Virus record (IMG/VR): IMGVR_UViG_3300033475_000008
Span: 1-64,000 of that record
Length of the DNA stretch: 64,000 nucleotides
Source: a virus
Strand: one strand, 5' to 3'
The position numbers were made by a program, and so were the translations under genes. How positions within the stretch are numbered: the stretch's first letter is position 1; each line of letters starts with the position of its first letter. Below the pieces are notes generated by a model. It worked only from the letters and a program-made list of their open reading frames with translations, made no database searches and was not told the DNA's origin. Shown here piece after piece: positions 3,443 through 29,979 of the stretch.

Positions 3443-4429
3443 ATGCTGATCGTCCTAGAGGGTGTGGACAAGGGTGGTAAGACCTCAGTCGTCCGGGCCC
3501 TCAGTAAGCTCCACCTAAAGACCGGCAGGGGTCAGTTCACCTGCCTCCACCAGGGTCCACCGCCTGAGGGCGTGAATCTGGTGGAGCACTACGAGAGGCC
3601 GCTACTGCAGCCCGAGATGATCACGCGGTGCCTCAGCACTGAGGACCTGGTCGTGTTGGACCGGTGGCACGTCGGTGAGCTCGTGTATGGTCCGCTGCTT
3701 CGTGGTGGGTCCCGGCTCACGGAGGGTGCCGCCCTTCACGTGGAGCTGCTGTTGCAGTCACTGGGCGCGACTCAGGCCCTGGTGCAACCCTACGACGTGC
3801 AAGAGACCCTGAAGAGACACCGCCGGCAACCGGACCTGCTGCTCACGTCTCAGCAAGCCAGTGAGGTCGCGGAGTGGTACCGAGTCTATGCGGTGCACCG
3901 AGACAACTGGTACCAGTATGACAGTGGTGCAGCTTCGGCCACTGAACTCGCTCTCGAGCTACTGCAAGACTCGGCAGACTACACGAGAGAAGTACTCCCC
4001 GTCGCCACCGCTCACCCCTCTTACCTAGGTGACCCACAACCAGACGTGCTCTTGGTAGGTGACACTCGGTCCAACGGTGCTGACGCCTTGACCTGGACCA
4101 CGAAACCGTTCACCCCCGCAGCCACCCTGTCCAGCAGCACCTGGTTGATGGACGCTCTGGCAGCTGCCCCAGTCCCTCCCACTATGTTTGGCCTGGTCAA
4201 TGCCCGGGAGCCAGGGGTACAGTTGAGGAAGTTGTGGTCGGACCTGGGTGAGCCTCGTGTGGTCGCGTTGGGCAACGAGGCGGTCCGAGCCATGAAAGAG
4301 AACAAGCTCGAGTACACGAAGATGTGCCACCCGCAGTGGGCTCGTCGGTTCCGTCATAGTCACCGCGAGGACTACGCGAAGGCACTGAGAAGGGTGGTCG
4401 TCGATGGAGATCCAAACGGAGACTGGTGA
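3443..4429 (+). CDS. thymidylate-kinase-like dNMP kinase fused to a uracil-DNA-glycosylase-like domain
   Basis: N-term IVLEGVDKGGKTS P-loop and LDRW..E.VYG; C-term VLLVGD, PF, PRVVALGNEA and HP motifs of the UDG fold. Confidence 0.75.
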   Translation: MLIVLEGVDKGGKTSVVRALSKLHLKTGRGQFTCLHQGPPPEGVNLVEHYERPLLQPEMITRCLSTEDLVVLDRWHVGELVYGPLLRGGSRLTEGAALHVELLLQSLGATQALVQPYDVQETLKRHRRQPDLLLTSQQASEVAEWYRVYAVHRDNWYQYDSGAASATELALELLQDSADYTREVLPVATAHPSYLGDPQPDVLLVGDTRSNGADALTWTTKPFTPAATLSSSTWLMDALAAAPVPPTMFGLVNAREPGVQLRKLWSDLGEPRVVALGNEAVRAMKENKLEYTKMCHPQWARRFRHSHREDYAKALRRVVVDGDPNGDW

Positions 4430-5363
4430 CCAGGCGTACCGGGACCTGCTGACCAAGGTGCATGACCACGGTGAAGTGGTGTCACCGCGTGGATTCAAGA
4501 CGTGGGAGCTGCGACACGCCACCATCATCATCCGTGACCCGGTTCAGGCCCCACCGGTGAACCTGCGAAGCGGCTACAGTGAATACATCGCAGCCACGGA
4601 GTTGTGTCACCTTCTGGCGGGGGTGAGTCACCTGGGTCAACTGGACGCGGCCAGTCACGGTCGGTTCACCCAGTTTGCTGACGGTGGTCGGTTGCGAGGC
4701 GCGTACGGTCCTCGGCTCTTCAAGCAGCTCCTTCTCATCGAGGACAAGCTTCGGCGTGACCCGGACACCCGGCAAGCCGTGGCCACCATCTGGCGACCAG
4801 ATGAGTTGACCACTCGGGACACCCCGTGTACTCTCACCTTGACCTTCTCAGTGAGACACGGTCTCCTCGAGTTGAAGGTGCACATGCGGTCCAACGACCT
4901 CGTGCTGGGTGTGCCCTACGACTGGTTCATGTTCAGTCGCTTGCAACTGGCCATGGCCCAGGTACTGGGGGTGAGACCCGGGCCATACGTGCATCACGTG
5001 GACAGCCTGCACCTGTATGAGCGAGACGACGAGCGGGCCAGGACGATGGTGCACAACGCGATGCGAGGTGAGAGGGGTCACCGGGTCCTTCCCGCGTTCA
5101 CTCCCCTGAACCTCGCGTCTGGTGGCCTTGACGAAGCCTACACGACGTGGTCTCAGGTGCAGTCCGCGGCCACCGCGGTCTTGTGGCACCGCACCCCGGC
5201 CAACTGGTTCACGGATCGAGTGGAGCGCCTCACTGACGAGGAGGTAATCTGCGTGAGGTGCCAATACGTGGTGCCACGTAACCAGCTTCGTCGTTCCACC
5301 GACGACACCTTGGTAGGCCGGGCACCTGTCTGCTACGAGTGCTGGACCGAGAATGGCGAGTAG
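4404..5363 (+). CDS. thymidylate synthase homologue, probable dCMP hydroxymethylase-type
   Basis: GAYGPR, DPDTRQA, DTPCT (catalytic Cys), MRSND.LGVPYD (Asp at the dUMP/dCMP specificity site), SLHLYE. Confidence 0.8.
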   Translation: MEIQTETGDQAYRDLLTKVHDHGEVVSPRGFKTWELRHATIIIRDPVQAPPVNLRSGYSEYIAATELCHLLAGVSHLGQLDAASHGRFTQFADGGRLRGAYGPRLFKQLLLIEDKLRRDPDTRQAVATIWRPDELTTRDTPCTLTLTFSVRHGLLELKVHMRSNDLVLGVPYDWFMFSRLQLAMAQVLGVRPGPYVHHVDSLHLYERDDERARTMVHNAMRGERGHRVLPAFTPLNLASGGLDEAYTTWSQVQSAATAVLWHRTPANWFTDRVERLTDEEVICVRCQYVVPRNQLRRSTDDTLVGRAPVCYECWTENGE

Positions 5364-13028: not shown

Positions 13029-13095
13029 TCCCGGGTAGTTCAATAGGCAAGAACACCTGACGAGGAGGCCGCGGGTTCGAGTCCCGCCCCGGGAG
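13029..13095 (+). ncRNA. tRNA-like RNA with truncated anticodon arm
   Basis: Acceptor TCCCGGG/CCCGGGA, D arm and T arm GCGGG-TTCGAGT-CCCGC intact; anticodon arm only CCT-GACG-AGG. Confidence 0.75.
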
Positions 13096-14397: not shown

Positions 14398-14469
14398 CTC
14401 ACCGTAGCTCAATGGACAGAGCGGTCACCTCCTAAGTGACGAGTGTGGGTTCGACTCCCACCGGTGAGA
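14398..14469 (+). tRNA. tRNA-Arg(CCT)
   Basis: Full cloverleaf; anticodon loop CT-CCT-AA. Confidence 0.9.
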
Positions 14470-14528
14470 CGCTGCCAACTTGTCCACATACGTGGTAGGC
14501 TGGCTTCAGAAGAGAGGAGATTGAGAGC

Positions 14529-19433: not shown

Positions 19434-20464
19434 GAATCCTCGTCACAGGTACCACCAAGCAACAGATCGGTGGCGGCACTCAACTGGGTTACGAGCCAGT
19501 CGCTGACCTGTTCGTGAAGGGGCTCAGGTTCAACCCCGAGTGGCAGGTGGAGCACCGGCTCGCGGAGATCGGTGAGGTCATCACTGACTACGACGCGGTC
19601 TTCGTCGGCCTGGTGCCGCCCCTGTCCATCGCGTCGCATTACCTCTACGCGGCGCTGAACACGATCCACCAGTGCGAGACCCAGGGAATCCCACTGATAC
19701 TCTACGTGGATGACTGGGCGTTCCCCAGCATGATCGGGAAGCTCAAGACCGCGGTGAAGAACCCGGAGCACCTGACCAAGCCGTTCTTCGAGCGTCGGTA
19801 CGGTCACGAGTGGGCCGTAGTGCATCGGGACCTGCTGGTCGGTGTCTTGGAGCGTCTGCTGGAGCAGACGTGGCCGCCCACGGTGATCCCTGCCTTCACG
19901 TGGGGTGACCACCAGGTACTGCAGGATCGACTTCCCATGGTCCAGCGGGCGGTGTTCGTGGACCCGAGTCTGTTTGCTCGCGGCTACGCCGTTCACCCGG
20001 TACCACCTGAGGACAAGCAGCGTCAGTGGGTGTTGGGCACGGTGTCAGACCAGCGGACGTGGCTCGGGAAGCAGCAACTGGGTTGGGACGTCCGCTACAT
20101 CGGGTCTCGTTCCAGCAAGGCCACGGAGAAGATGCAGGAACAGGACTTGGTGGCGCTGTACGCGAAGAGTTGGGGGGTGCTCAGTCCACCCTACAAGCAG
20201 ATCCTCGGCACCGGCTGGTGGCGGAACCGCTTCGTGTACACCTCCTGGATGAGGTCCATCCTGTTCTGTGACCCAGGTGAGGCACCGCAGCTCGGTGGGG
20301 CCTTCCAGCTCAACCCACTGGAGGTCAGTGAGATGAGCGTTCGCGACCTGGCCAACGTCGCTGACTGGCAGTGGCGAGAGCAGGCGCAGCGGATGATGTC
20401 ACGTGATCGGGTTCACCAGACTCTCCGCGACGCTATCACGGCCTCGATGGAGCGAGTCGCGTGA
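19430..20464 (+). CDS. GT-B type glycosyltransferase, putative DNA base glycosyltransferase
   Basis: MRILVTG start, YDAVFVG, YVDDW, LY.KSWGVL.PPY, GWWRNRF; translationally coupled between the dNTPase and UGM. Confidence 0.6.
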   Translation: MRILVTGTTKQQIGGGTQLGYEPVADLFVKGLRFNPEWQVEHRLAEIGEVITDYDAVFVGLVPPLSIASHYLYAALNTIHQCETQGIPLILYVDDWAFPSMIGKLKTAVKNPEHLTKPFFERRYGHEWAVVHRDLLVGVLERLLEQTWPPTVIPAFTWGDHQVLQDRLPMVQRAVFVDPSLFARGYAVHPVPPEDKQRQWVLGTVSDQRTWLGKQQLGWDVRYIGSRSSKATEKMQEQDLVALYAKSWGVLSPPYKQILGTGWWRNRFVYTSWMRSILFCDPGEAPQLGGAFQLNPLEVSEMSVRDLANVADWQWREQAQRMMSRDRVHQTLRDAITASMERVA

Positions 20465-21579
20465 CGCAGCAAACGTGCGTGGTCGTAGGCGCCGGGTTGA
20501 CCGGCGCCTGCGCCGCGTGGTGGCTGAACCAACACGGGTGGCACGTCGAGGTTCATGAGGCTACTCACCAGGTGGGTGGCAACTTGCGGGTAGCCTACCT
20601 CAACGGCGTGCCCTATGAGCCACACGGTCCCCACATCTTTCACACCAGTAGCCGCGAGGCTTACACGGTGATGCGTGATCACTCCCACCTGAACAACTAC
20701 AAGCACCACGTACTCACGCAGCTCCCAGACGGTCGTCACCTCACGTGGCCCCTGCAACTTGAGGAGCTTCAAGCTCTCCCTGAGTGGCCCAAGATCGCAG
20801 CTGAGCTGGACGCTCTCTCTGGGAAGCCAGAGGGAAACAACTTTGAGGCCTACGCGGTCAGTCTGATGGGTCGCACCCTCTATGAGTGGTGCTGTGAGGG
20901 ATACACGTGGAAGCAGTGGGGTCAGGACCCGAAGACCCTGGCTGCGTCTTTCGCTCCAAAGCGCCTGGACCTGCGTAGCGACGGTCGACGCGAGATGTTC
21001 CGGAACACGTGGGAAGGCTACAACACGCAGGGATGGCACGTTACCGTGAACCACCTCCTCCGTGGGATCACGGTCTACACAGACTCACCACTCACCTTGA
21101 GCACGTTGCCAGCCGCTGACGCCTACGTGGTCACTGCCCCCCTGGATCAGTTCCTGGAGGTGGACCAAGAACTACCGTGGCGCGGAGTCCGAACCGTGGC
21201 TGAGTACGTCCCCACCAACGGTGGCTTCCACTTGCCGGCACCCGTGGTGAACCGCCCTGACCAGGACGTCCAGTTCACCCGACAGGTGGAGACCAGTCAG
21301 ATGGCGTGGCACGACGCAGATCCACGTGACGTTCGCAGTGTCGGTGGTACGGTGGTGTGCACGGAGTACCCAGGTGAACCCGTGAAGCACTACCCGGTGG
21401 ATGACGTGGACGGGCGCAACCGGCATGATCACCGCACCCTGGTGACCATGTTGAGGATGCTAGAACCGCGAGCCGTGTTGGCTGGCAGGCTCGCGAATTA
21501 TGTATACATTGACATGGACCAAGCGATCATGCAGGGTCTCAACGCGGCCCGGCAGATCCTCCGGGGGACCAGAGAGTAG
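20461..21579 (+). CDS. glf: UDP-galactopyranose mutase
   Basis: VVGAGLTG FAD motif, E....GGN, HGPHIFHT, GYT.KQWG, EYP, YYP-like HYP, GRLA.Y.YIDMDQAI. Confidence 0.9.
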   Translation: MTQQTCVVVGAGLTGACAAWWLNQHGWHVEVHEATHQVGGNLRVAYLNGVPYEPHGPHIFHTSSREAYTVMRDHSHLNNYKHHVLTQLPDGRHLTWPLQLEELQALPEWPKIAAELDALSGKPEGNNFEAYAVSLMGRTLYEWCCEGYTWKQWGQDPKTLAASFAPKRLDLRSDGRREMFRNTWEGYNTQGWHVTVNHLLRGITVYTDSPLTLSTLPAADAYVVTAPLDQFLEVDQELPWRGVRTVAEYVPTNGGFHLPAPVVNRPDQDVQFTRQVETSQMAWHDADPRDVRSVGGTVVCTEYPGEPVKHYPVDDVDGRNRHDHRTLVTMLRMLEPRAVLAGRLANYVYIDMDQAIMQGLNAARQILRGTRE

Positions 21580-23697
21580 GTGCGTATGGGGTGGAACCCG
21601 ATGAAGGTGGACCTGTCAGATCTCACCGGTCTGCAGGCACCACTGCGAGCAGTGGACGTGCACGGTTTCGGTGGTGGCTTCACCGCCGGAGCCGTGCGCG
21701 CTGGCTTTCAGCTGGTGGGAAAGCGGGAAGGACCAGGTGGATTCGGGGTCTCCCTCTTCGAGGCTAACCGGGCCCTACTCGGTGACCAGTGGAAGGCTCA
21801 GGCCTGCGACGCCAAGGAGTGGGAACCGGTCGCCGCTGACGTGGTGATCGGTACCCCGCCTTGCACCGCGTTCAGCAACATGTCAGCCGGGTTCAGTGAT
21901 CGCGGTGCTGACGCGGCCATCAACCACTGCATGTGGGACCTCATCCGCTACGCCGCCAAGGTCAAGCCAGGCGTAGTGGTCATGGAATCTGTGGCTGGTG
22001 CCTACACGAAGGGTCTTCCTCTCATGGAGGCCCTCAGAGTGGAACTATGTGAGCGGTCTGGTCTCATGTACCGAGCCACTCACGTGTTGCAGAACAACCT
22101 CAGTCTGGGTGGCTGCACCAACCGGAAACGCTACTTCTTGGTGCTCAGTCAGGTACCATTCGGGGTAGAGTCCGCGAACCTGCACTGGTTGCCGACTGTG
22201 GGTGACGCGATCAGTGACCTCAGCGACCTGCAACTGGGCTGGGAGAGCCAGCACGTGGACGCGGCACCCACCTGGTGGTCTGCCAGTATGCGCACCGCCG
22301 ATCACACCGTGGACGGTCACCAGACACCTCGATCCAACCACGGTGACCGGCTCACGGACCTGGTGACCCCACCTGACGGGGTGAGCTGGGAACCGGGTGA
22401 CCGGGTGGCTGACGTGTTGCAACGCTACTACGCTCAACACGAGCGCCTCCCAGAGTCCTGGCGCTACCAGTTCAAGGGACGTCGTGACAAGTCACTGCCT
22501 CCGATCACGCGAGAAGAGCAGTTGGTCACACGCGGCATGGACCCAGGTGGGTTTGGACAGACCCGGTACTGGCCGTGGGACCAACCAGGTAGTGTGATCA
22601 ACGGTGCGGGTCCACACATGATCTGGCACCCCAGCAACCGCATCGCGACGCATCGCGAGGTGGCTCGACTCATGGGCTTCCCAGACGAGTGGCGAGTCGG
22701 TTCTGCCGCTGAGGACAAGCAGCTTCACATGTTCTGGGGTAAGGGCACGTCAGTGCACCCAGCGTGGTGGATCATGACCTGGGCGCGAGAGTCACTGCTG
22801 GGTCACCCGGGTGAGAAGGTCGGGGACGAACTTCCTGACGGTAGTCGACTCGTGGACGTGTCAGGAGACTGGCGTCCCGTGGCTCGGAAGCAGTGGGGCC
22901 AGGAAGTGGAGACGGAGGGCGTTACTCGAGAGAAGAAGACACGCGGGATCCGACAGAGTCGCGGTCCTCGAGTTCCACGAGTGCGGCCCGCTGTGCCAGA
23001 GGGCTTCCAGATGCGGGAGAGCGACCACTACTGCGTGGACGAGGTCTTCGTGCGTCGAGTGTACAGGCAGCTCAAGCTCTCGTCTGTGGACATTGTCCTG
23101 GACCTAGGCGCCCACGTTGGCGCGTTCACACGGTGGGCGAGAGACCAGGGAGCAGGTGCCGTGCACGCCGTGGAGATGATGCCAGAGACCCTGGAGTACC
23201 TGGTCAAGAACACCGAGAGTGACGAACGCGTTCACGTGCTCCACGGTGCGGTCAGCGGTCAAGAGTGTGACCAGGACGGTATGGTGCAGGCTGTACTACA
23301 CTCTCGTGGCAACCCGATGGGTGCCTTCGTGAACGGGACCCGGAAGACCCTCGGTGAGGGGATCAAGGCTCAGGCGTACCGCGTGGTAGAGGTACCGGCT
23401 ATCAGCATGTTGGCACTGCTGCACGAGATCCACCCCACGATCATCAAGTTCGACATCGAGACCAGTGAGTACGACGTGATCACACCCTGGGCGAGCACCA
23501 TCCGAGGTTACGGCGTCAAGCAGCTCATCGGCGAGCATCACGTGATGACACCTGAGCTGGTGCAAAAGGCGCAGGAGCTGCACGCGTCACTGGTAGCCCA
23601 GGGCTACGTGGCCAGTCGACCAGCTCCGACGGTCCCCAGCAACTGGGGAACAGTGATCTACTACACGCTCCCCGACGACGAAACGCCTGATCAGTGA
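21580..23697 (+). CDS. divergent DNA cytosine-C5 methyltransferase fused to a FkbM-family methyltransferase
   Basis: N-part DVHGFGGG, GTPPCTAFS, VMESV, RKRYF, REVARLMGFPD; C-part VLDLGAHVGAF, AVE, IIKFDIE.SE. Confidence 0.8.
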   Translation: MRMGWNPMKVDLSDLTGLQAPLRAVDVHGFGGGFTAGAVRAGFQLVGKREGPGGFGVSLFEANRALLGDQWKAQACDAKEWEPVAADVVIGTPPCTAFSNMSAGFSDRGADAAINHCMWDLIRYAAKVKPGVVVMESVAGAYTKGLPLMEALRVELCERSGLMYRATHVLQNNLSLGGCTNRKRYFLVLSQVPFGVESANLHWLPTVGDAISDLSDLQLGWESQHVDAAPTWWSASMRTADHTVDGHQTPRSNHGDRLTDLVTPPDGVSWEPGDRVADVLQRYYAQHERLPESWRYQFKGRRDKSLPPITREEQLVTRGMDPGGFGQTRYWPWDQPGSVINGAGPHMIWHPSNRIATHREVARLMGFPDEWRVGSAAEDKQLHMFWGKGTSVHPAWWIMTWARESLLGHPGEKVGDELPDGSRLVDVSGDWRPVARKQWGQEVETEGVTREKKTRGIRQSRGPRVPRVRPAVPEGFQMRESDHYCVDEVFVRRVYRQLKLSSVDIVLDLGAHVGAFTRWARDQGAGAVHAVEMMPETLEYLVKNTESDERVHVLHGAVSGQECDQDGMVQAVLHSRGNPMGAFVNGTRKTLGEGIKAQAYRVVEVPAISMLALLHEIHPTIIKFDIETSEYDVITPWASTIRGYGVKQLIGEHHVMTPELVQKAQELHASLVAQGYVASRPAPTVPSNWGTVIYYTLPDDETPDQ

Positions 23698-23754: not shown

Positions 23755-23804
23755 AGCTACCAGCAGGACAGCAGGAACCACCGGGGAGACCCGGTGGATC
23801 CGGT

Positions 23805-23875
23805 GCCGAAGTGGTCTAACGGTATGACGCCTGGCTTCCAACCAGACGACGCGGGTTCGACTCCCGTCTTCGGTT
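23805..23875 (+). tRNA. tRNA-Gly(TCC)
   Basis: Cloverleaf; loop CT-TCC-AA. Confidence 0.9.
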
Positions 23876-23885
23876 CGCACAGTAT

Positions 23886-23962
23886 GGCCCAGAGCCTCAC
23901 TTGACGGTCAAGTGCTCGCCTGCAAAGCGAGTGGCTCTCCAGTTCGACTCTGGTCTGGGTCT
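23886..23962 (+). tRNA. tRNA-Cys(GCA), atypical D arm
   Basis: Loop CT-GCA-AA; D region is the long hairpin CACTTGAC/GTCAAGTG. Confidence 0.75.
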
Positions 23963-23963
23963 C

Positions 23964-24035
23964 GGTCCCATCGTCTATCGGTTAGGATGCTGGATTTTCA
24001 CTCCAGCGGACGGAGTTCGACTCTCCGTGGGACTA
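23964..24035 (+). tRNA. tRNA-Glu(TTC)
   Basis: Cloverleaf; loop TT-TTC-AC. Confidence 0.9.
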
Positions 24036-24046
24036 CGCAAGAGCAT

Positions 24047-24119
24047 GGTCGAGTGGAGTAGCGGTTATCTCGTCTCCCTCTCAAGGAGAAGATCGCGGGT
24101 TCAAATCCCGTCTCGACTA
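24047..24119 (+). tRNA. tRNA-Glu(CTC)
   Basis: Cloverleaf; loop CT-CTC-AA. Confidence 0.9.
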
Positions 24120-24169
24120 CGCAAGCTGGAACCTAGGCCGGCGCGCGAAAGGGAACCTGATCAGTTCCT

Positions 24170-24236
24170 GGGACTGAGGTGTAGTGCACAGCCGCCTGAT
24201 GGGTGGCGGGGGTCGGAGCGGAACCGGCCAGTCCAC
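24170..24236 (+). ncRNA. highly divergent tRNA-like RNA (GAT loop, non-canonical T loop)
   Basis: GGACTG/CAGTCC; GCCGC-CTGATGG-GTGGC; GTCGG-AGCGGAA-CCGGC. Confidence 0.5.
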
Positions 24237-24247
24237 GTAGTATCGAT

Positions 24248-24321
24248 GGTGTGTTAGCTCAGTTGGTTAGAGCGCTGCCCTGTCAAGGCAGAGGTCGCGG
24301 GTTCAAGTCCCGTACATACCG
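24248..24321 (+). tRNA. tRNA-Asp(GTC)
   Basis: Cloverleaf; loop CT-GTC-AA. Confidence 0.92.
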
Positions 24322-24405
24322 CGCAGGGGTGGGTCAAGCCGGCTGGCACCGGTGATGACGACTATGCCAGTAGTTCCGGACCACCCGGTCCGGTCACCCC
24401 GTTAA

Positions 24406-24478
24406 CCTCCTGTAGAGCAGCTAGGAGTGCTCGTCACCTCGGCGGTGAAGGTCGTGGGTTCAAGTCCCACCAGGAGTG
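24406..24478 (+). tRNA. atypical tRNA (Pro-CGG-like, anticodon arm 2 nt short)
   Basis: Acceptor, D and T arms intact; anticodon arm TCACC-TCGGC-GGTGA. Confidence 0.55.
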
Positions 24479-24489
24479 CGTAAGATCAT

Positions 24490-24564
24490 GGTACTGTAGC
24501 TCAGATGGTAGAGCGCTCGCCTGAAAAGCGAGAGGATTCGGCGGTTCGAGCCCGTCCGGTACCA
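24490..24564 (+). tRNA. tRNA-Phe(GAA)
   Basis: Cloverleaf; loop CT-GAA-AA. Confidence 0.92.
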
Positions 24565-24615
24565 CGTCGGGGTTGGGAAGCCTCGTGGCGGGTAACCACG
24601 CCCTCCCCGGCTCCA

Positions 24616-24689
24616 GGGGTCGTAGTGTCAAATGGAAGACACACCATGTTCGCAACATGGCAGTCCGAGTTCGAACCTCGGTGACTCCA
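24616..24689 (+). tRNA. tRNA-Ala(CGC)
   Basis: Loop TT-CGC-AA; G3:U70. Confidence 0.9.
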
Positions 24690-24793
24690 CGTTAAGTAGA
24701 TCAATCAATGTCCATGGTAAGTTGATTGAGATCGCTTAGCAGGCGAGTTACGACGCCTAGTGACAAGTGACCACGAGGTCACCGTAACACCAT

Positions 24794-24864
24794 GCGGGTG
24801 TAGTTCAATGGTAGAACAGCCGTCTCCAAAGCGGCCAACGTGGGATCGTTACCTACCGCCCGTG
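24794..24864 (+). tRNA. tRNA-Trp(CCA)
   Basis: Loop CT-CCA-AA; atypical T loop ATCGTTA. Confidence 0.85.
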
Positions 24865-24897
24865 CGCAGTACCACGATTATTGAGAACTGAATCTAT

Positions 24898-24969
24898 GCT
24901 GGAGTAGCACAGTGGTAGCGCACCTTCTTGGTAAGAAGGAGGTCGCGGGTTCGATCCCCGCCTTCAGCT
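24898..24969 (+). tRNA. tRNA-Thr(GGT)
   Basis: Loop TT-GGT-AA. Confidence 0.9.
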
Positions 24970-24974
24970 CGCAA

Positions 24975-25045
24975 GCCCCTATGGCGTAACGGTAGCGTAG
25001 CTGGCTTTTACCCAGCGGGCCCAGGATCAACACCTGGTGGGGGCA
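24975..25045 (+). tRNA. tRNA-Lys(TTT)
   Basis: Loop CT-TTT-AC; atypical T loop ATCAACA. Confidence 0.8.
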
Positions 25046-25168
25046 CGGCGGATGCCTGCGGAAACCCTTACTCCGCTCGGGTGTCGAGAGGCCAACTTGA
25101 GTGATCCGCGTGGCGGCTCTCCTCTTGTAAGATCTTGACACGCTCATAGTAGGTGAGCCCCGCGTTAT

Positions 25169-25244
25169 GGTCCGGTATCCCAACTTGGCAGAGGACTACG
25201 GCTCAGACCCGTAGCATGTGTGGGTTCGAATCCCACTCGGATCA
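25169..25244 (+). tRNA. tRNA-Leu(CAG), short variable loop
   Basis: Loop CT-CAG-AC. Confidence 0.85.
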
Positions 25245-25249
25245 CGTAT

Positions 25250-25323
25250 GGCCTGGTAGCCCAATGGCAGAGGCACGGCACTTAAAACGCCGTCAAGTAG
25301 GGGTTCGACTCCCCTGCAGGTCA
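25250..25323 (+). tRNA. tRNA-Leu(TAA), short variable loop
   Basis: Loop CT-TAA-AA. Confidence 0.85.
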
Positions 25324-25324
25324 C

Positions 25325-25399
25325 GCACTCGTAGCCCAACTGGTAGGAGGCACGACGTTGAGGGCGTCGGTAGTACGGGTTCGAATCCCGTCGGGTGTA
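25325..25399 (+). tRNA. tRNA-Leu(GAG), short variable loop
   Basis: Loop TT-GAG-GG. Confidence 0.85.
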
Positions 25400-25404
25400 C
25401 GCAA

Positions 25405-25477
25405 GCTCCTGTAGCCCAATGGCAGAGGCGACGGTTTCAAAAGCCGTTCAGTGTGGGTTCGAGTCCCACTGGGAGTA
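25405..25477 (+). tRNA. tRNA-Leu(CAA), short variable loop
   Basis: Loop TT-CAA-AA. Confidence 0.85.
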
Positions 25478-25478
25478 C

Positions 25479-25548
25479 GGGTTTGACGCTGAGGTAGCGG
25501 ACTTGCCTTGCAAGCAGGTTGCAGTCGGTTCGATTCCGACCAGATCCA
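25479..25548 (+). tRNA. tRNA-Ala(TGC)
   Basis: Loop CT-TGC-AA; G3:U70; short D arm. Confidence 0.8.
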
Positions 25549-25696
25549 CGCTAGGGCTCCACCAGACGAGATATCCGATGGGCGTGGAAGTGGCTGCATA
25601 TCAGACAACGGGTATGCAGAAACTGAAACCGGATGTGGAGGCAAGCCCAGTGGAACGTGGAATGTCACGGTCCGGGTGTAGAAGAGTCTCGTCGAT

Positions 25697-25769
25697 GGGC
25701 TTGTAGCTCAGCTGGTAGAGCGCCGCCTCGGCAGGGCGGAGGTCCGGGGTTCGAGTCCCCGTTGGTCCA
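25697..25769 (+). tRNA. tRNA-Ala(GGC)
   Basis: Loop TC-GGC-AG (C33); G3:U70; weak acceptor stem. Confidence 0.75.
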
Positions 25770-25782
25770 CGCAGTACAGTAA

Positions 25783-25854
25783 GCCCCTATAACACAGCGG
25801 TCAGTGTAACGGACTCTTAATCCGTGAACCCCGGTTCGAATCCGGGTGGGGGTA
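25783..25854 (+). tRNA. tRNA-Lys(CTT)
   Basis: Loop CT-CTT-AA. Confidence 0.9.
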
Positions 25855-25864
25855 CGCAAGTCAA

Positions 25865-25938
25865 TGGGGTGTAGCTCAGCCGGTTAGAGCACCACGCTGA
25901 TAACGTGGCGGTCGGTGGTTCAAGTCCACTCATCCCAA
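25865..25938 (+). tRNA. tRNA-Ile(GAT)
   Basis: Loop CT-GAT-AA. Confidence 0.92.
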
Positions 25939-25988
25939 CGCAACCTACTGGTAGTGTATACGAGTAGGTGGTATGGTAGGCAAGACGG

Positions 25989-26062
25989 TCCAGGGTAGCC
26001 AAGCTGGTTAAGGCACCTCGCTCATAACGAGGAGATCGCGGGTTCGAGTCCCGTCTCTGGTA
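25989..26062 (+). tRNA. tRNA-Met/Ile2(CAT)
   Basis: Loop CT-CAT-AA. Confidence 0.85.
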
Positions 26063-26075
26063 CGCAGTAACACGG

Positions 26076-26148
26076 TGCGGGGTAGGCTAACGGTTACGCC
26101 GAAGGGCTCATAACCCTTTGCATGCTGGTTCGAATCCAGTCCCCGCCA
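26076..26148 (+). tRNA. tRNA-fMet(CAT)
   Basis: Loop CT-CAT-AA; three G-C pairs in the anticodon stem; 1:72 mismatch. Confidence 0.88.
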
Positions 26149-26161
26149 CGCAAGGTTCCAT

Positions 26162-26240
26162 GGGCGTCATGCTCCAAGGTGGAGCACCCGGCTGTAACCC
26201 GGACGCTAACGCACGGCAGGTTCGATTCCTGCGGCGCCCA
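26162..26240 (+). tRNA. tRNA-Tyr(GTA)
   Basis: Loop CT-GTA-AC; extended variable arm. Confidence 0.85.
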
Positions 26241-26241
26241 C

Positions 26242-26314
26242 TCTCCATTGGTGTAACCGGCAACACGCTTGACTCTGAATCAAGAGAGTCCTGGTTCGAA
26301 CCCAGGGTGGAGAG
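26242..26314 (+). tRNA. tRNA-Gln(CTG)
   Basis: Loop CT-CTG-AA; U1:A72. Confidence 0.9.
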
Positions 26315-26319
26315 CTCGA

Positions 26320-26394
26320 TCCCTGTTGGGCGAATTGGCAGAGCCGCCTGGCTTTGAACCAGGAGTCATCCAGGTTCGAACCCTGGACAGGGAG
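26320..26394 (+). tRNA. tRNA-Gln(TTG)
   Basis: Loop CT-TTG-AA. Confidence 0.9.
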
Positions 26395-26401
26395 CGCTTG
26401 A

Positions 26402-26473
26402 TCTCTCGTAGCTTAACGGCAGAGCGACGCACTGTTAATGCGTTAGGTCCTGGTTCGAATCCAGGTGAGAGAG
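26402..26473 (+). tRNA. tRNA-Asn(GTT)
   Basis: Loop CT-GTT-AA. Confidence 0.92.
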
Positions 26474-26476
26474 CGA

Positions 26477-26551
26477 GGTCGGAGGGATGCGGGTTCGAGT
26501 CCCGTCTAGTGGGTTAATCTCCACTGGTAGCTCAATGGCAGAGCACCGGCC
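26477..26551 (+). ncRNA. circularly permuted tRNA-like RNA (YrlA/Y-RNA-like topology)
   Basis: Order is GGTCGG, T arm, loop-closed acceptor stem CTAGTGG/CCACTGG, D arm, CCGGCC. Confidence 0.75.
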
Positions 26552-26555
26552 GTAA

Positions 26556-26628
26556 CTGGATGTCGCCTAGTGGTATGGCACCTGGTTTGGGACCAGGAAC
26601 AATGGGAGTTCGATTCTCCCCATCCGGA
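26556..26628 (+). tRNA. tRNA-Pro(TGG)
   Basis: Loop TT-TGG-GA. Confidence 0.9.
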
Positions 26629-26638
26629 CGCACCACTT

Positions 26639-26722
26639 GGAAGAGTCGCCTAGTGGCTATGGCGCCTCACTGCTAATGAGGTTGGGGTAACACCCTCGCA
26701 GGTTCGAGTCCTGTCTCTTCCG
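26639..26722 (+). tRNA. tRNA-Ser(GCT)
   Basis: Loop CT-GCT-AA; long variable arm; G73. Confidence 0.9.
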
Positions 26723-26808
26723 CCGTTGCGTTGGACTCAAGGAGCGTGCACCTCCTCCAGTGCGGCGAGCATTACTCCCTGGTCTCCCTCGGGACTGCCA
26801 GGGCTTTT

Positions 26809-26895
26809 GGAAAGGTCCGCCTATCGGTAACGGGCAGCACCTTGGAATGGTGTGAAGGTGTCACAGCCGTCGGGGTTCAACTCCCCGTCTTTCCG
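26809..26895 (+). tRNA. tRNA-Ser(GGA)
   Basis: Loop TT-GGA-AT; long variable arm. Confidence 0.85.
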
Positions 26896-26900
26896 CGCAG

Positions 26901-26972
26901 GTCAGTGTGGCTCAGTGGTAGAGCGCTTGCATGACACGCAAGAGGTCGAAGGTTCGAACCCTTCCATTGACA
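26901..26972 (+). tRNA. tRNA-Val(GAC)
   Basis: Loop AT-GAC-AC. Confidence 0.9.
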
Positions 26973-26973
26973 C

Positions 26974-27045
26974 GTCGTTGTGGTCTAGTGGTATGACGCC
27001 GCCTTGCCAAGGCGGAGACCGCGAGTTCGAATCTCGTCAACGGCA
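26974..27045 (+). tRNA. tRNA-Gly(GCC)
   Basis: Loop TT-GCC-AA. Confidence 0.9.
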
Positions 27046-27135
27046 CAAACGCGACGGCCTCGCGATCTGGTGTGAGTGCCAGAGAAGGTCACCTGAGGGT
27101 GATTCTAGGCGTGCCCTCGGGAGATCAGGCCAGCT

Positions 27136-27219
27136 GGAGAGCTGGACAGGTGGTGCGTCAAGCGGCCTTGAAAGTCGTCACCGTGAAAGCGGCTGGGGGT
27201 TCGATTCCCTCGCTCTCCG
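27136..27219 (+). tRNA. tRNA-Ser(TGA)
   Basis: Loop CT-TGA-AA; long variable arm. Confidence 0.85.
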
Positions 27220-27258
27220 CGGGTGCCAGGTGTTCCCCTAGTGGCCCTGGCACCGCTT

Positions 27259-27343
27259 GGAAGGTTCGACAGGTGGTGCGTCAAGCGTCTTCGAATGGCG
27301 TGGCGGTGTCAAGCCGTTGAGGGTTCGATTCCCTTGCCTTCCG
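27259..27343 (+). tRNA. tRNA-Ser(CGA)
   Basis: Loop TT-CGA-AT; long variable arm. Confidence 0.85.
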
Positions 27344-27344
27344 C

Positions 27345-27417
27345 GCACTTGTAGCTCAGTTGGTAGAGCACTCGCCTCGTAAGTGAGTGGCCGCAGGTTC
27401 GATCCCTGTCAGGTGCT
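27345..27417 (+). tRNA. tRNA-Thr(CGT)
   Basis: Loop CT-CGT-AA. Confidence 0.9.
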
Positions 27418-27428
27418 CTCGTAGTAAC

Positions 27429-27502
27429 GCTGGTATAGCTCAGTTTGGCAGAGCACCCGCCTTGTAAGCGGAAGCGCGTCGGTTCGAAGCCGGCTACCAG
27501 CT
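27429..27502 (+). tRNA. tRNA-Thr(TGT)
   Basis: Loop CT-TGT-AA. Confidence 0.9.
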
Positions 27503-27611
27503 CGGACCACGCCTTCGCGAGAAGACCTAGGCGCGTGGTGACAGGGTTCATGGTGAGAGATCGGTGTCACGGACCATGAAAGCTACCAGGGTGGGCAGGG
27601 TAGTGCAACAC

Positions 27612-27684
27612 CGGGATGTGGCCTAGTTGGTAAGGCACGTGACTGGGGGTCACGAGAGCGCTGGTTCGAGTCCAGTCATCCCGA
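27612..27684 (+). tRNA. tRNA-Pro(GGG)
   Basis: Loop CT-GGG-GG. Confidence 0.9.
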
Positions 27685-27782
27685 CGGAAGTGCCACCCCT
27701 CGAGATTCTGACGCTGGGGGCGCTGAGTTAAGACGCGTCAGGTCTTGGCTGGTTTGCCGGTACCAACCACCACCGGTTCTAG

Positions 27783-27853
27783 GCTCTTGTAGCTCAATGG
27801 GAGAGCGCCTCGTTCACACCGAGGATACGGAGGTTCGATTCCTCTCAAGAGTA
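27783..27853 (+). tRNA. tRNA-Val(CAC)
   Basis: Loop TT-CAC-AC. Confidence 0.9.
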
Positions 27854-27854
27854 C

Positions 27855-27926
27855 GGTGACCGTGGTGTAGCGGTAACACGCTTGACTGTGGCTCAAGCGT
27901 CACGGGTTCGATCCCCGTCGGTCACA
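27855..27926 (+). tRNA. tRNA-His(GTG)
   Basis: Loop CT-GTG-GC; encoded G-1; A73 rather than the usual bacterial C73. Confidence 0.88.
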
Positions 27927-28072
27927 CGCGTAGGGAGTCGCTGGTCCCCATGCACTAGCCGTTCTACTTCGAGTCGCGCACCGGCCAGCTACCGGGAAGA
28001 GTCAAAAGTGATGATCCACCGTCCGCTGGTGGAAGTAGAGCCAAGATAGAAGATCATCACAACCAGCACCAC

Positions 28073-28259
28073 GTGTCTGTAGCTCAGGATAGGACAGAGC
28101 GGCCCGAACAACGGAGGGCGGCAGGCAAGAGGTTTGCGGATGCACCGGGTCCGGGCCTGACGGTCACAAGCCGAAGGGTTGGGGTACCTTATCCCCCGGC
28201 AGGGAAGCGCGTTTGACCAAACTTGCCCATCAGCGTGGGTTCGAATCCCACCAGACACG
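28073..28259 (+). ncRNA. tRNA-like RNA with ~135-nt structured insert
   Basis: Perfect acceptor GTGTCTG/CAGACAC, Arg-like D arm and T arm GTGGG-TTCGAAT-CCCAC flank a long insert. Confidence 0.75.
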
Positions 28260-28269
28260 CGTAGTACGA

Positions 28270-28329
28270 GGGCCTAGTTACCCAAGGTGAGGGTGCGCGC
28301 GCAACCGGGTTCGACTCCCGCTAGGTCCA
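28270..28329 (+). ncRNA. mini tRNA-like RNA with G3:U70
   Basis: GGGCCTAG/CTAGGTCC-A; CGGG-TTCGACT-CCCG; no D or anticodon arm. Confidence 0.6.
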
Positions 28330-28330
28330 C

Positions 28331-28403
28331 GGGTCTGTAGCTCAGAGGACAGAGCCGCCGGCTTCTACCCGGCTGGTCGTGGGTTCGACTCCCACCGGGC
28401 CCA
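28331..28403 (+). tRNA. tRNA-Arg(TCT)
   Basis: Loop CT-TCT-AC; A20. Confidence 0.9.
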
Positions 28404-28419
28404 CTGGTTGAGATTGGTT

Positions 28420-28449
28420 GTTTACATCTAGTCGAGATCGTGGTATAGT
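28420..28449 (+). promoter_or_regulatory. GTTTACA-type promoter
   Basis: TTTACA-17 nt-TATAGT followed by leader AGCAGGACAGCAGGAA. Confidence 0.75.
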
Positions 28450-28499
28450 GGTTCTAGCAGGACAGCAGGAAGCAAAACTGAAGAGTGACGAGTAACGAT

Positions 28500-28575
28500 G
28501 AGTCTGTAGCACAGCGGATAGTGCAGCTGCTTCCGAAGCAGCAGGTCGGAGGTTCGAATCCTCTCAGGCTCACCA
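28500..28575 (+). tRNA. tRNA-Arg(CCG)
   Basis: Loop TT-CCG-AA; encoded CCA. Confidence 0.92.
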
Positions 28576-28578
28576 GCG

Positions 28579-28742
28579 ATGCTGGCACCAGGGCATAAGC
28601 GTGACGGTCAACCACGGCTGAGAGTCGGACTGATGAGCAACGGTCCACCTGGTGGAGGTGCGGGCACTAACGCGTGGTGGCGAGTGTACCAACAGATCCT
28701 CACCCTTCTTGCTCTGAGACTTACCACCTCAGAGCAAGAAGG
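28579..28742 (+). ncRNA. unknown structured ncRNA, copy A
   Basis: Paralogous to 28826..28986 with compensatory stem changes. Confidence 0.75.
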
Positions 28743-28746
28743 TCAA

Positions 28747-28819
28747 GCCTCTGTAGCACAGCGGATAGTGCGCCTGATTACGGATCAGGAGGCCGGGGGT
28801 TCGAATCCCTCCAGGGGTA
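28747..28819 (+). tRNA. tRNA-Arg(ACG)
   Basis: Loop TT-ACG-GA. Confidence 0.92.
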
Positions 28820-28825
28820 CAAGTG

Positions 28826-28986
28826 GTGCCAGTACCGGGGCACAAGCGGAGGGCAGCACTCCGGCTGAGAGTCGACTCGATGAGCAACGAGTCACCGGGT
28901 AGAGGTGAGTGAAGCTAACGGGTGGTGCCGAGTGGAACGACAGATCCTCAACCAGTCAGGCCCAGGGCTCACCACCCTGGGCCTGA
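28826..28986 (+). ncRNA. unknown structured ncRNA, copy B
   Basis: Paralogous to 28579..28742 with compensatory stem changes. Confidence 0.75.
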
Positions 28987-28991
28987 GTGGT

Positions 28992-29020
28992 GTTTACACC
29001 TCATCAAAGTGTGGTAGGAT
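28992..29020 (+). promoter_or_regulatory. GTTTACA-type promoter
   Basis: TTTACA-16 nt-TAGGAT. Confidence 0.6.
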
Positions 29021-29064
29021 AGAACCACCAGGGTGAACCTGGCAGAGTGATTGAGGAGACCACC

Positions 29065-29979
29065 ATGACCACGAGTACCATCGAGAACCGCACACTCCCC
29101 TGGTCCGGCTTGAGCACCGGTATCACCAGCGAGATCGTTGACAGCCAGAACCTGCTCCAGAGCGCTGGCTTGGATTTCGACGTCGCGATCCGACCCATGT
29201 GGCGTCGACTCAGTGACGGCAACTTCGTGCAGGACCTGCGTGACCGTGAGGTCTACCGCACCGACACGGAGCACAAGCTCGGCACCGTGAAGACTCGCTA
29301 CGAGATCTTCCAGAACCGAGACGCGTTCACCTTCGGTGACGAACTCGTCAAGGGCGGTCACGGTCAGTGGGTGGAGGCTGGCTGCCGCAACGACGGGCGC
29401 CACGTCTTCATGACCATGAAACTGGGTGAGGGGTTCACCGTCGCCGGGCAGGACGCCTACGACCTCTACCTCTTCCTCCGCACCAGCCACGACGGCTCCA
29501 CCGGCGTGTCCGCCCACGTGGTCCCGTTCCGGGTGTGGTGCCTCAACCAGACGGGACTGGTGATGAAGGAGCACGTGTCCTCCTGGACCGTGCAGCACAC
29601 GACCAGTCTGGCTCAGAAGCTGACTGAGGCGAAGGCCGCTCTCCAGCTCTCCCAGTCCTACGGGGCCGCCCTGCAGACGCGGCTGGAAGACCTGGTGAAG
29701 AACCCGGTCTCCAAGATGCACGTCAAGTCCCTGCTGGAGAAGATCGTCCCGGAGACTCGTCCCAAGCGGGAAGAAATGATCGACGGGATCATGAACAACC
29801 TGAAGGACTCCCCGAACCTGGAGGGGTACCGAGACACCGCCTACGGGGCCCTGAACGCGGTCACGGAGTGGTACGACCACCTGAAGACGCAGCGCACCCC
29901 GGTGGCCCGCTTCGACTCGATCATGGCGGGTGAGGGCGCGAAGATGCGCAACCAGCTGGCCCTCGCCTTGGCCGCCTGA
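29065..29979 (+). CDS. DUF932 family phage/plasmid protein
   Basis: PW..L, AGLDF.V, LG.V..RY...QN..AF.F, SHDGS, RVWC.N, TAYGA.NAVTEW.DH. Confidence 0.85.
   Translation: MTTSTIENRTLPWSGLSTGITSEIVDSQNLLQSAGLDFDVAIRPMWRRLSDGNFVQDLRDREVYRTDTEHKLGTVKTRYEIFQNRDAFTFGDELVKGGHGQWVEAGCRNDGRHVFMTMKLGEGFTVAGQDAYDLYLFLRTSHDGSTGVSAHVVPFRVWCLNQTGLVMKEHVSSWTVQHTTSLAQKLTEAKAALQLSQSYGAALQTRLEDLVKNPVSKMHVKSLLEKIVPETRPKREEMIDGIMNNLKDSPNLEGYRDTAYGALNAVTEWYDHLKTQRTPVARFDSIMAGEGAKMRNQLALALAA

Follow-up and report, generated by a model that had tools for sequence, protein, structure and literature searches.

In the tRNA-miRNA units of MHV68, in MALAT1-mascRNA and in the 3′ETS-leuZ sponge of E. coli, processing takes hold of a tRNA or tRNA-like unit, which thereby sets the end of the functional RNA next to it. 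Other structured RNAs engage the tRNA itself, as in the T-box, where a UGGN sequence pairs with the NCCA end of the tRNA. Phages possess an RNA of their own in the phi29-type pRNA, which is ~120-174 nt long, carries two mutually complementary loops by which molecules might be joined hand in hand, and belongs to the protein-primed podophages of Bacillota, where it lies near the genome end. Phages with large tRNA arrays, in turn, repeatedly bear structured RNAs that have no explanation so far, namely RNAC and RNAD of T4, ROOL and GOLLD. RNAC and RNAD are small non-coding RNAs from the tRNA region of T4, and their role is still unknown (PMC3014915; PMC9697503). ROOL and GOLLD are ornate RNAs of phages and prophages, also of unknown function, that are often found near tRNA islands and are possibly co-transcribed with them (PMC5737381), and their architecture is built around kissing loops (bioRxiv 10.1101/2024.12.08.627333).

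Here we describe two diverged copies of an RNA of ~165-170 nt that sit at the 3′ end of a phage tRNA array and that, on balance, we take to form a new family of genuine structured RNAs, set free from the phage tRNA operon. The analysed stretch, hereafter the window, is the first 64 kb (positions 1 to 64,000) of IMGVR_UViG_3300033475_000008, a 91,440-bp IMG/VR virus record with a GC content of 61% and a CheckV completeness of 89%. The window encodes 40 tRNA genes, 39 of which form a single array on the + strand (23805-28820). Upstream of the array lies a replication and nucleotide-metabolism module that includes a family A DNA polymerase, an SNF2 helicase, a PD-(D/E)XK nuclease, thymidylate synthase and DNA methylases, and the tail genes follow downstream on the − strand. 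The nearest DNA polymerases are those of Arthrobacter, Microbacterium and Gordonia phages, and since even these are only 38-42% identical, we regard the virus as an uncultured soil actinophage without close sequenced relatives, whose host probably belongs to the Actinomycetota. A DUF932 gene stands behind the tRNA array in other IMG/VR phages as well (L041, L042, ~3700-4900); their proteins are 47-51% identical to the one here, and the placement is kept despite this distance, so the synteny is conserved.

Several other elements of the window are out of the ordinary. Two tRNA genes lie ~10 kb upstream of the main array, one at 13029-13095, which Rfam calls at 51.5 bits and ARAGORN does not call, and the other, a tRNA-Arg(CCT), at 14398-14470. 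Within the array, a tRNA-like gene at 28073-28259, called by neither ARAGORN nor Rfam, has an acceptor, D arm and T arm similar to those of the adjacent tRNA-Arg genes (GTGTCTGTAGCTCAGGATAGGACAGAGC ... GTGGGTTCGAATCCCACCAGACAC) and ~105 nt in place of the anticodon and variable arms. It is followed at 28270-28329 by a 60-nt miniature tRNA-like hairpin pair, an acceptor and T arm without an anticodon arm, and the Rfam YrlA model gives a match below threshold at 28278-28389 (27.8 bits against a threshold of 69, E 0.0015). Farther away, positions 1096-2574 encode a 492-aa protein with several matches to C2H2 zinc fingers of the eukaryotic type (PF00096, E 4e-10), which is unusual in a phage, while 20461-23697 holds a UDP-galactopyranose mutase-like gene and then a 705-aa fusion of a C5 cytosine methylase with an FkbM-type methyltransferase, the latter just 5′ of the tRNA array.

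The two RNA copies and the elements around them are laid out as follows.

28421-28449, + strand: sigma-70-like promoter of the small RNA operon, TTTACA, 17 nt, TATAGT, with a TG extension
28456-28471, + strand: 16-nt leader AGCAGGACAGCAGGAA, identical to the leader at 23762-23777
28500-28575, + strand: tRNA-Arg(CCG), 67.4 bits, with its CCA encoded at 28573-28575
28576-28746, + strand: RNA copy A, directly 3′ of tRNA-Arg(CCG)
28747-28820, + strand: tRNA-Arg(ACG), 65 bits, CCA not encoded, discriminator A at 28819
28821-28992, + strand: RNA copy B, directly 3′ of tRNA-Arg(ACG)
28956-28986, + strand: upper part of helix P5 of copy B, a terminator-like hairpin of 12 pairs with the tail GTGGTGTTTA
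28993-29020, + strand: next promoter-like site, TTTACA, 16 nt, TAGGAT, for the DUF932 gene
29047-29979: DUF932 (TIGR03299-type) gene, directly 3′ of the tRNA array

A sequence-only reading of this DNA had proposed that a dedicated promoter drives the unit, and the site at 28421-28449 agrees with that, matching at 10 of 12 positions. It is of the same type as the promoter at the start of the whole array: the segment 23720-23777 (GTTTACAT ... TATAGT) corresponds to 28415-28471, and the leader AGCAGGACAGCAGGAA occurs only twice in the entire 91-kb genome, once at each RNA operon start. At the other end, P5 of copy B is likely the end of the RNA operon, and the promoter-like site at 28993-29020 sets the 3′ limit of the RNA unit. 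Because the RNAs lie within a tRNA operon that has its own promoter, release by tRNA processing naturally suggests itself. A single precursor would start at the sigma-70-type promoter and run through the leader, tRNA-Arg(CCG), copy A, tRNA-Arg(ACG) and copy B, with P5 of copy B acting as terminator. RNase P would then cut at the 5′ ends of the tRNAs, including the bond 28746/28747, four nucleotides past P5 of copy A, while the 3′ ends of the tRNAs would be made by RNase Z or by 3′ trimming, so that processing would free two compact RNAs whose ends may be shielded by P0 and P5. Among the sequencing runs listed for this stretch there was no RNA run.

Each copy can be drawn as the same succession of helices on the + strand.

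Copy A, + strand: P0, 28579-28596
Copy A, + strand: P1′, 28600-28616
Copy A, + strand: P1, 28619-28626 with 28695-28702
Copy A, + strand: P2, 28627-28646
Copy A, + strand: P3, 28647-28659
Copy A, + strand: P4, 28671-28682
Copy A, + strand: P5, 28704-28742
Copy B, + strand: P0, 28826-28843
Copy B, + strand: P1′, 28847-28863
Copy B, + strand: P1, 28866-28873 with 28943-28950
Copy B, + strand: P2, 28874-28893
Copy B, + strand: P3, 28894-28906
Copy B, + strand: P4, 28919-28930
Copy B, + strand: P5, 28952-28990

P0, at the 5′ end, has 5 bp and an 8-nt loop, L0, that contains YACC, and it is followed by P1′, of 4-5 bp with a variable loop. P1 pairs UGAG.GUC with GAU.CUCA, both strands being invariant, and encloses a junction that carries P2, P3 and P4. 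The first of these has 6 bp and an invariant loop, L2 (AUGAGCAA); P3 has 3-4 bp and a loop, L3, of the form xGGURGA; and P4 has 3 bp and the invariant loop L4, GUGGUG. One nucleotide past P1 stands P5, the 3′ end, a hairpin of 3 + 11 bp whose loop, L5, contains YACCAC. Between the copies, 9 of the 14 pairs of P5 are changed on both sides with zero indels and with the loop ACCAC kept, which suggests selection on length and loop, beyond what a mere terminator would need.

The structure is based on two paralogues and one partly reconstructed orthologue. The segments behind the two tRNAs align over 176 columns with one gap each, which bears out the proposal of a duplicated non-coding RNA behind tRNA-Arg(CCG) and tRNA-Arg(ACG). 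The alignment tool reports a mean column identity of 82%, and the copies mismatch at 62 of the 176 columns, about one third. Mismatches fall evenly across column positions modulo 3 (20/19/23), and every reading frame is interrupted in at least one of the copies, which rules out a protein-coding repeat. Every loop and junction block named as conserved in the sequence-only reading is indeed invariant between A and B (AAGC, GGCTGAGAGTCG, (G)ATGAGCAA(CG), CTAACG, GTGGTG and ACAGATCCTCA), and every stem it had named differs by compensatory change: CGTG/CACG against CGGAG/CTCCG, GGACTG/CGGTCC against GACTCG/CGAGTC, and CGC/GCG against CGG/CCG. RNAalifold, run on the pair, gives 44 base pairs, of which 16 have both partners altered, and closes the multibranch junction with TGAG.GTC/GAT.CTCA, in keeping with the TGAG/CTCA closure proposed earlier. 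In our structure of 53 pairs, which includes two added loop-loop helices, 99.1% of the 106 cells are paired and 17 pairs are changed on both sides, while sliding the partners as a control leaves 36-41% paired and 0-2 double-changed pairs, and none of 500 shuffles reached the observed pairing values. Identity between the copies is 60% in stems and 72% at unpaired core positions, and the fold z-scores are −2.45 for copy A and −2.86 for copy B. Copy A has four G-U pairs and copy B has one, each of which would turn into an A-C mismatch if the opposite strand were read, and together with the tRNAs and promoters they point to the + strand as the RNA strand; fold energy did not discriminate between the + and − strands for either copy.

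Each copy has two loops of the ACCA type, L0 and L5, opposite two of the UGGU type, L3 and L4. The 3′ hairpin loops hold TACCAC in one copy and CACCAC in the other, both complementary to GTGGTG, and this pair of motifs occurs in the 91-kb genome only at copies A and B. Between L0 and L3, copy A can form 5 bp and copy B 4 bp, and a single pair covaries (C-G against U-A); the 6 bp between L4 and L5 are invariant and so show no covariation. The sequence-only reading had spoken of a clear kissing loop; the complementarity that it saw is real, and the word clear is too strong, since a 6-bp match arises with P ~0.25 when the loops are shuffled with their composition preserved, and a 6-bp and a 5-bp match together with P ~0.16. 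Chance matching is thus fairly frequent between G/U-rich and A/C-rich loops, and the choice of partners is ambiguous as well, L0 also fitting L4 and L3 also fitting L5. Kissing loops of the RNA copies are therefore best called plausible, with weak support. L0 and L5 would dock on L3 and L4, inside one molecule or between like molecules, and such docking would leave L2 and the junction as the surface that faces a partner. A 9-mer, GGCTCACCA, is common to the P5 loop region of copy B (28966-28974) and the 3′ end of tRNA-Arg(CCG) (28567-28575); with 7 occurrences genome-wide, it is nothing special and may be compositional.

Neither copy belongs to a known RNA family that we could find. At gathering threshold, only tRNA models pass in the window among the 4227 models of Rfam 15, and at E values up to 10 the surrounding 1.2-kb region yielded tRNAs and hairpin-level noise only and neither copy alone gave a family match, in agreement with the earlier view that this was an unrecognised class of non-coding RNA. 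The best Rfam matches of the single copies are hairpin-level matches to miRNA models, at most 23 bits against thresholds of 80-100 bits, and the models for T-box, RNase P, tmRNA, YrlA, ROOL, GOLLD and pRNA match neither copy. What the copies share with phage tRNA-operon RNAs as a class is that they are non-coding, are placed between tRNA genes or after them, on the strand that the tRNAs also use, and share a promoter with them. ROOL and GOLLD have the same kind of location, in a phage and beside a tRNA island, but were rejected: their models do not match at E up to 10, and the copies are ~170 nt long where more than ~500 nt are required. A hammerhead ribozyme was considered because of CUGAUGA in copy A; copy B has UCGAUGA at the same columns, both copies lack the GAAA and UH elements, and there is no Rfam match, so the RNA is not a hammerhead. 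The same CUGAUGA led to a box C/D-like reading, which was dropped as the motif is in copy A only. For a T-box riboswitch there is no Rfam match and no conserved specifier (only copy A has CGG in L1′, a loop that is free to vary in copy B and in the orthologue described below), and a tRNA gene rather than a regulated ORF stands behind copy A. YrlA or another bacterial Y RNA was likewise set aside, the weak YrlA match lying outside both copies and Pfam finding no TROVE protein among the 40 larger ORFs, and so was a phi29-type pRNA, given no Rfam match and a family A DNA polymerase near those of actinophages. A likeness to CR-I/CR-V of RNase P was dropped for want of model support; a likeness to 5S rRNA and the sarcin-ricin loop was set aside as well, and a UAA/GAN internal loop next to P4 is lost in the orthologue.

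How widely is the RNA distributed? We built a covariance model, R1, from the 130-nt core of the two copies, as the sequence-only reading had suggested. It recovers both, copy A at 150.5 bits and copy B at 157.7 bits, and with filters off across the array it finds no third, so that R1 finds exactly these two in the phage. Searches by model in actinophage and metagenome sequence added none: R1 had no match in Microbacterium phage Cece, Arthrobacter phage Mimi or five IMG/VR relatives, and none in the DUF932-linked loci L041-L053 or in 151 sampled Actinomycetota genomes. Motif scans of IMG/VR, JGI metagenomes and GTDB genomes led to the same end, with chance matches only. The motif CTGAGAGTCG-N-ATGAGCAA had one match, inside a coding region (L001); GATGAGCAA-N-CAGATCCTCA had 20 in IMG/VR, all due to chance as judged by nhmmer; and GCTGAGAGTCG-N-GATGAGCAA had 5 each in JGI metagenomes and GTDB genomes, none confirmed by the model, the best reaching 16 bits within a 763-aa ORF (L035). 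The pattern GTGGTG..ACAGATC had no match in the scan, and a 20-mer of tRNA-Arg found two contigs, with the RNA in neither. In a search for related loci, the DUF932 protein alone gave none and the DNA polymerase gave one distant contig; relatives of the DUF932 protein do exist on other contigs, at 79% identity (P0002, on a Logan contig of 22,078 nt) and 75% identity (P0003, on a JGI/Logan contig of 15,562 nt). A gap after tRNA-Arg(ACG) in locus L048 was looked at as a candidate and holds a small ORF, not the RNA.

Relatives at ~85% identity were found when Logan contigs of four soil metagenomes were compared with the window over 28300-29300. A 22-kb contig, assembled in two runs from different studies, has tRNA-Arg(CCG), 9 nt and tRNA-Arg(ACG), after which come a copy B orthologue and DUF932, with copy A cleanly missing. 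Two other soil contigs have 80-84 unrelated letters where copy A stands here, and in one of these two the 5′ two-thirds of copy B are likewise substituted, by 89 diverged letters. Copy A is thus missing or replaced across the soil relatives compared, so the second copy is dispensable, and the number of RNA copies varies within the clade. The two tRNA-Arg genes in the window have an identical 21-mer, and the simplest reading of their history is an old tandem duplication of a unit of tRNA-Arg and RNA, with copy A lost in sister lineages and both copies kept here. Taken together, we read the RNA family as narrowly distributed, comprising the two copies and the soil-phage orthologue and not found elsewhere in what was searched.

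The orthologue also permits a look at the structure from a third sequence, which is a partial reconstruction made by applying the differences listed to copy B. Among those differences P0, P1′, P2, P4 and P1 remain paired; in P0 a G-C pair is replaced by A-U, and P2 shifts its register with compensation. In the proposed L0-L3 contact, a position where G stands opposite G in copy B is A-U in the orthologue, a state that copy A has too. In P3 the pair next to the loop is lost (C opposite A), and CUAAC has become CGGCC, so that P3 and the J3/4 strand are less certain than the other elements and the P3-P4 connecting strand is not conserved throughout. Most of the double changes in the orthologue coincide with those already found between A and B, and at several positions copy A and the orthologue agree with each other and differ from copy B; these events are therefore not independent.

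Pfam detected no RNA-handling protein among the 40 larger ORFs (Ro60, RNA ligase, RtcB or CCA enzyme), and pairing of L2 with tRNA D-stems or phage targets was rejected, as its complement, TTGCTCAT, is not enriched in the genome; a function must therefore be read from form only. The sequence-only reading had named a ribozyme, a protein sponge and an antitoxin mimic as possibilities, and on the present evidence these stay conjectures. Our leading, and tentative, proposal is a stable RNA that acts in trans as a decoy, binding and titrating a protein or RNA partner during infection. The element might instead work only in cis, as a 3′ trailer that insulates tRNA-Arg, guides RNase P and RNase Z and terminates the operon, the freed fragment having no role. 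P5 of copy B, terminator-like and ending 1-6 nt before the next promoter, suits such a trailer, as do the constant position of the RNA at the array 3′ end in the soil relatives and the dispensability of copy A there; yet a terminator or spacer needs a hairpin only, and here a five-helix junction with invariant loops and strands of 6-12 nt has been kept despite divergence at about a third of positions. The other tRNA spacers of the array, moreover, are 0-100 nt long and lack the motif, and more distant relatives have DUF932 right after the tRNA array and no such element, so that we think a purely cis role unlikely. The main alternative to a partner-binding role works through the same loops: the ACCA-type loops of one molecule would pair with the UGGU-type loops of another, hand in hand after the manner of phi29 pRNA or of the ROOL and GOLLD cages, and the oligomer would be the active form. 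Every copy does carry two A/C-rich and two complementary G/U-rich loops, and ROOL and GOLLD, near phage tRNA islands, have kissing loops that were first read as tertiary contacts and proved intermolecular. Through the covarying L0-L3 pair A and B become mutually orthogonal, a pattern that homotypic and internal contacts would explain equally well, so the covariation does not separate the two; the loop complementarity is statistically weak, and P5, at 14-15 bp, is about as long as P1 and P4 with the internal loop, lengths that would suit an internal contact. Self-assembly accordingly seems to us quite unlikely.

Less probable still is a role tied to the tRNA 3′ end, either as a sensor in which L3 and L4 bind the A73-CCA of uncharged tRNA in T-box fashion or as a mimic in which L0 and L5 distract a host enzyme or toxin whose target is the tRNA 3′ end. 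The loops have the required letters, CACCA or UACC(A) in L0 and L5 and (U)GGU in L3 and L4, both flanking tRNA-Arg genes have a discriminator A, and GGCTCACCA stands both in L5 of copy B and at the 3′ end of tRNA-Arg(CCG); but a loop is not a free 3′ end, a 9-mer found 7 times in the genome says little, no T-box or tRNA-like model of Rfam matches, there is no conserved specifier for an Arg codon, and no expression platform lies behind copy A. We consider it very improbable that this is a new class of self-cleaving or catalytic RNA that trims itself from the tRNA precursor. A compact multi-helix junction with invariant strands beside processing sites, and CUGAUGA in copy A, are what one might look for in such a molecule, but it is not a hammerhead, it matches no ribozyme family, and RNase P and RNase Z already explain its ends. 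A more speculative version of the loop contacts, which we hold to be quite unlikely, has the ACCA-type loops mimic the A73-CCA end of a tRNA and the UGGU-type loops serve as its receptors, giving a ring or cage, or the capture of tRNA 3′ ends or of a host factor that attacks those ends; an RNA-only ring or cage would be a small counterpart of ROOL, GOLLD or pRNA. On this version the phage would have an RNA-based counter-defence or a tRNA-homeostasis device inside its own tRNA operon. If the ACCA/UGGU loop pairs are functional, they would link the RNAs of tRNA islands to recognition of the tRNA 3′ end.

The element offers a small and tractable example among the RNAs of phage tRNA islands, with a clear junction fold and a defined promoter and processing context at ~170 nt. 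Its two natural paralogues amount to a built-in compensatory-mutation experiment, to which soil metagenomes add diverged orthologues, and its size permits synthesis for chemical probing, tests of oligomer state and pull-downs, which could help to show what tRNA-island RNAs do. Compared with the described systems, it is like the T-box in size, in having unpaired bases of the UGGN type that could pair with a tRNA NCCA end and, for its own part, in having a tRNA gene as neighbour; unlike the T-box, it has no stem I platform, no specifier and no terminator/antiterminator switch for a downstream gene. It is similar to the phi29 pRNA in size and in its complementary loops, and differs in having no Rfam match to it and in lying in a tRNA operon. 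With the tRNA-linked RNAs of MHV68, MALAT1 and E. coli it would share the use of a tRNA as handle, in unrelated sequences and organisms and with processing that we infer here. ROOL and GOLLD are 500-800 nt or longer, several times its ~170 nt, and do not match it in Rfam. RNAC and RNAD of T4 are alike in being transcripts of a phage tRNA region that are presumably matured with the tRNAs; no relationship in sequence or structure connects them with the RNA described here, and the hosts differ, Pseudomonadota for T4 and probably Actinomycetota for this phage. What this RNA has, and RNAC and RNAD do not, is a five-helix junction, paired loop motifs and two diverged paralogues.
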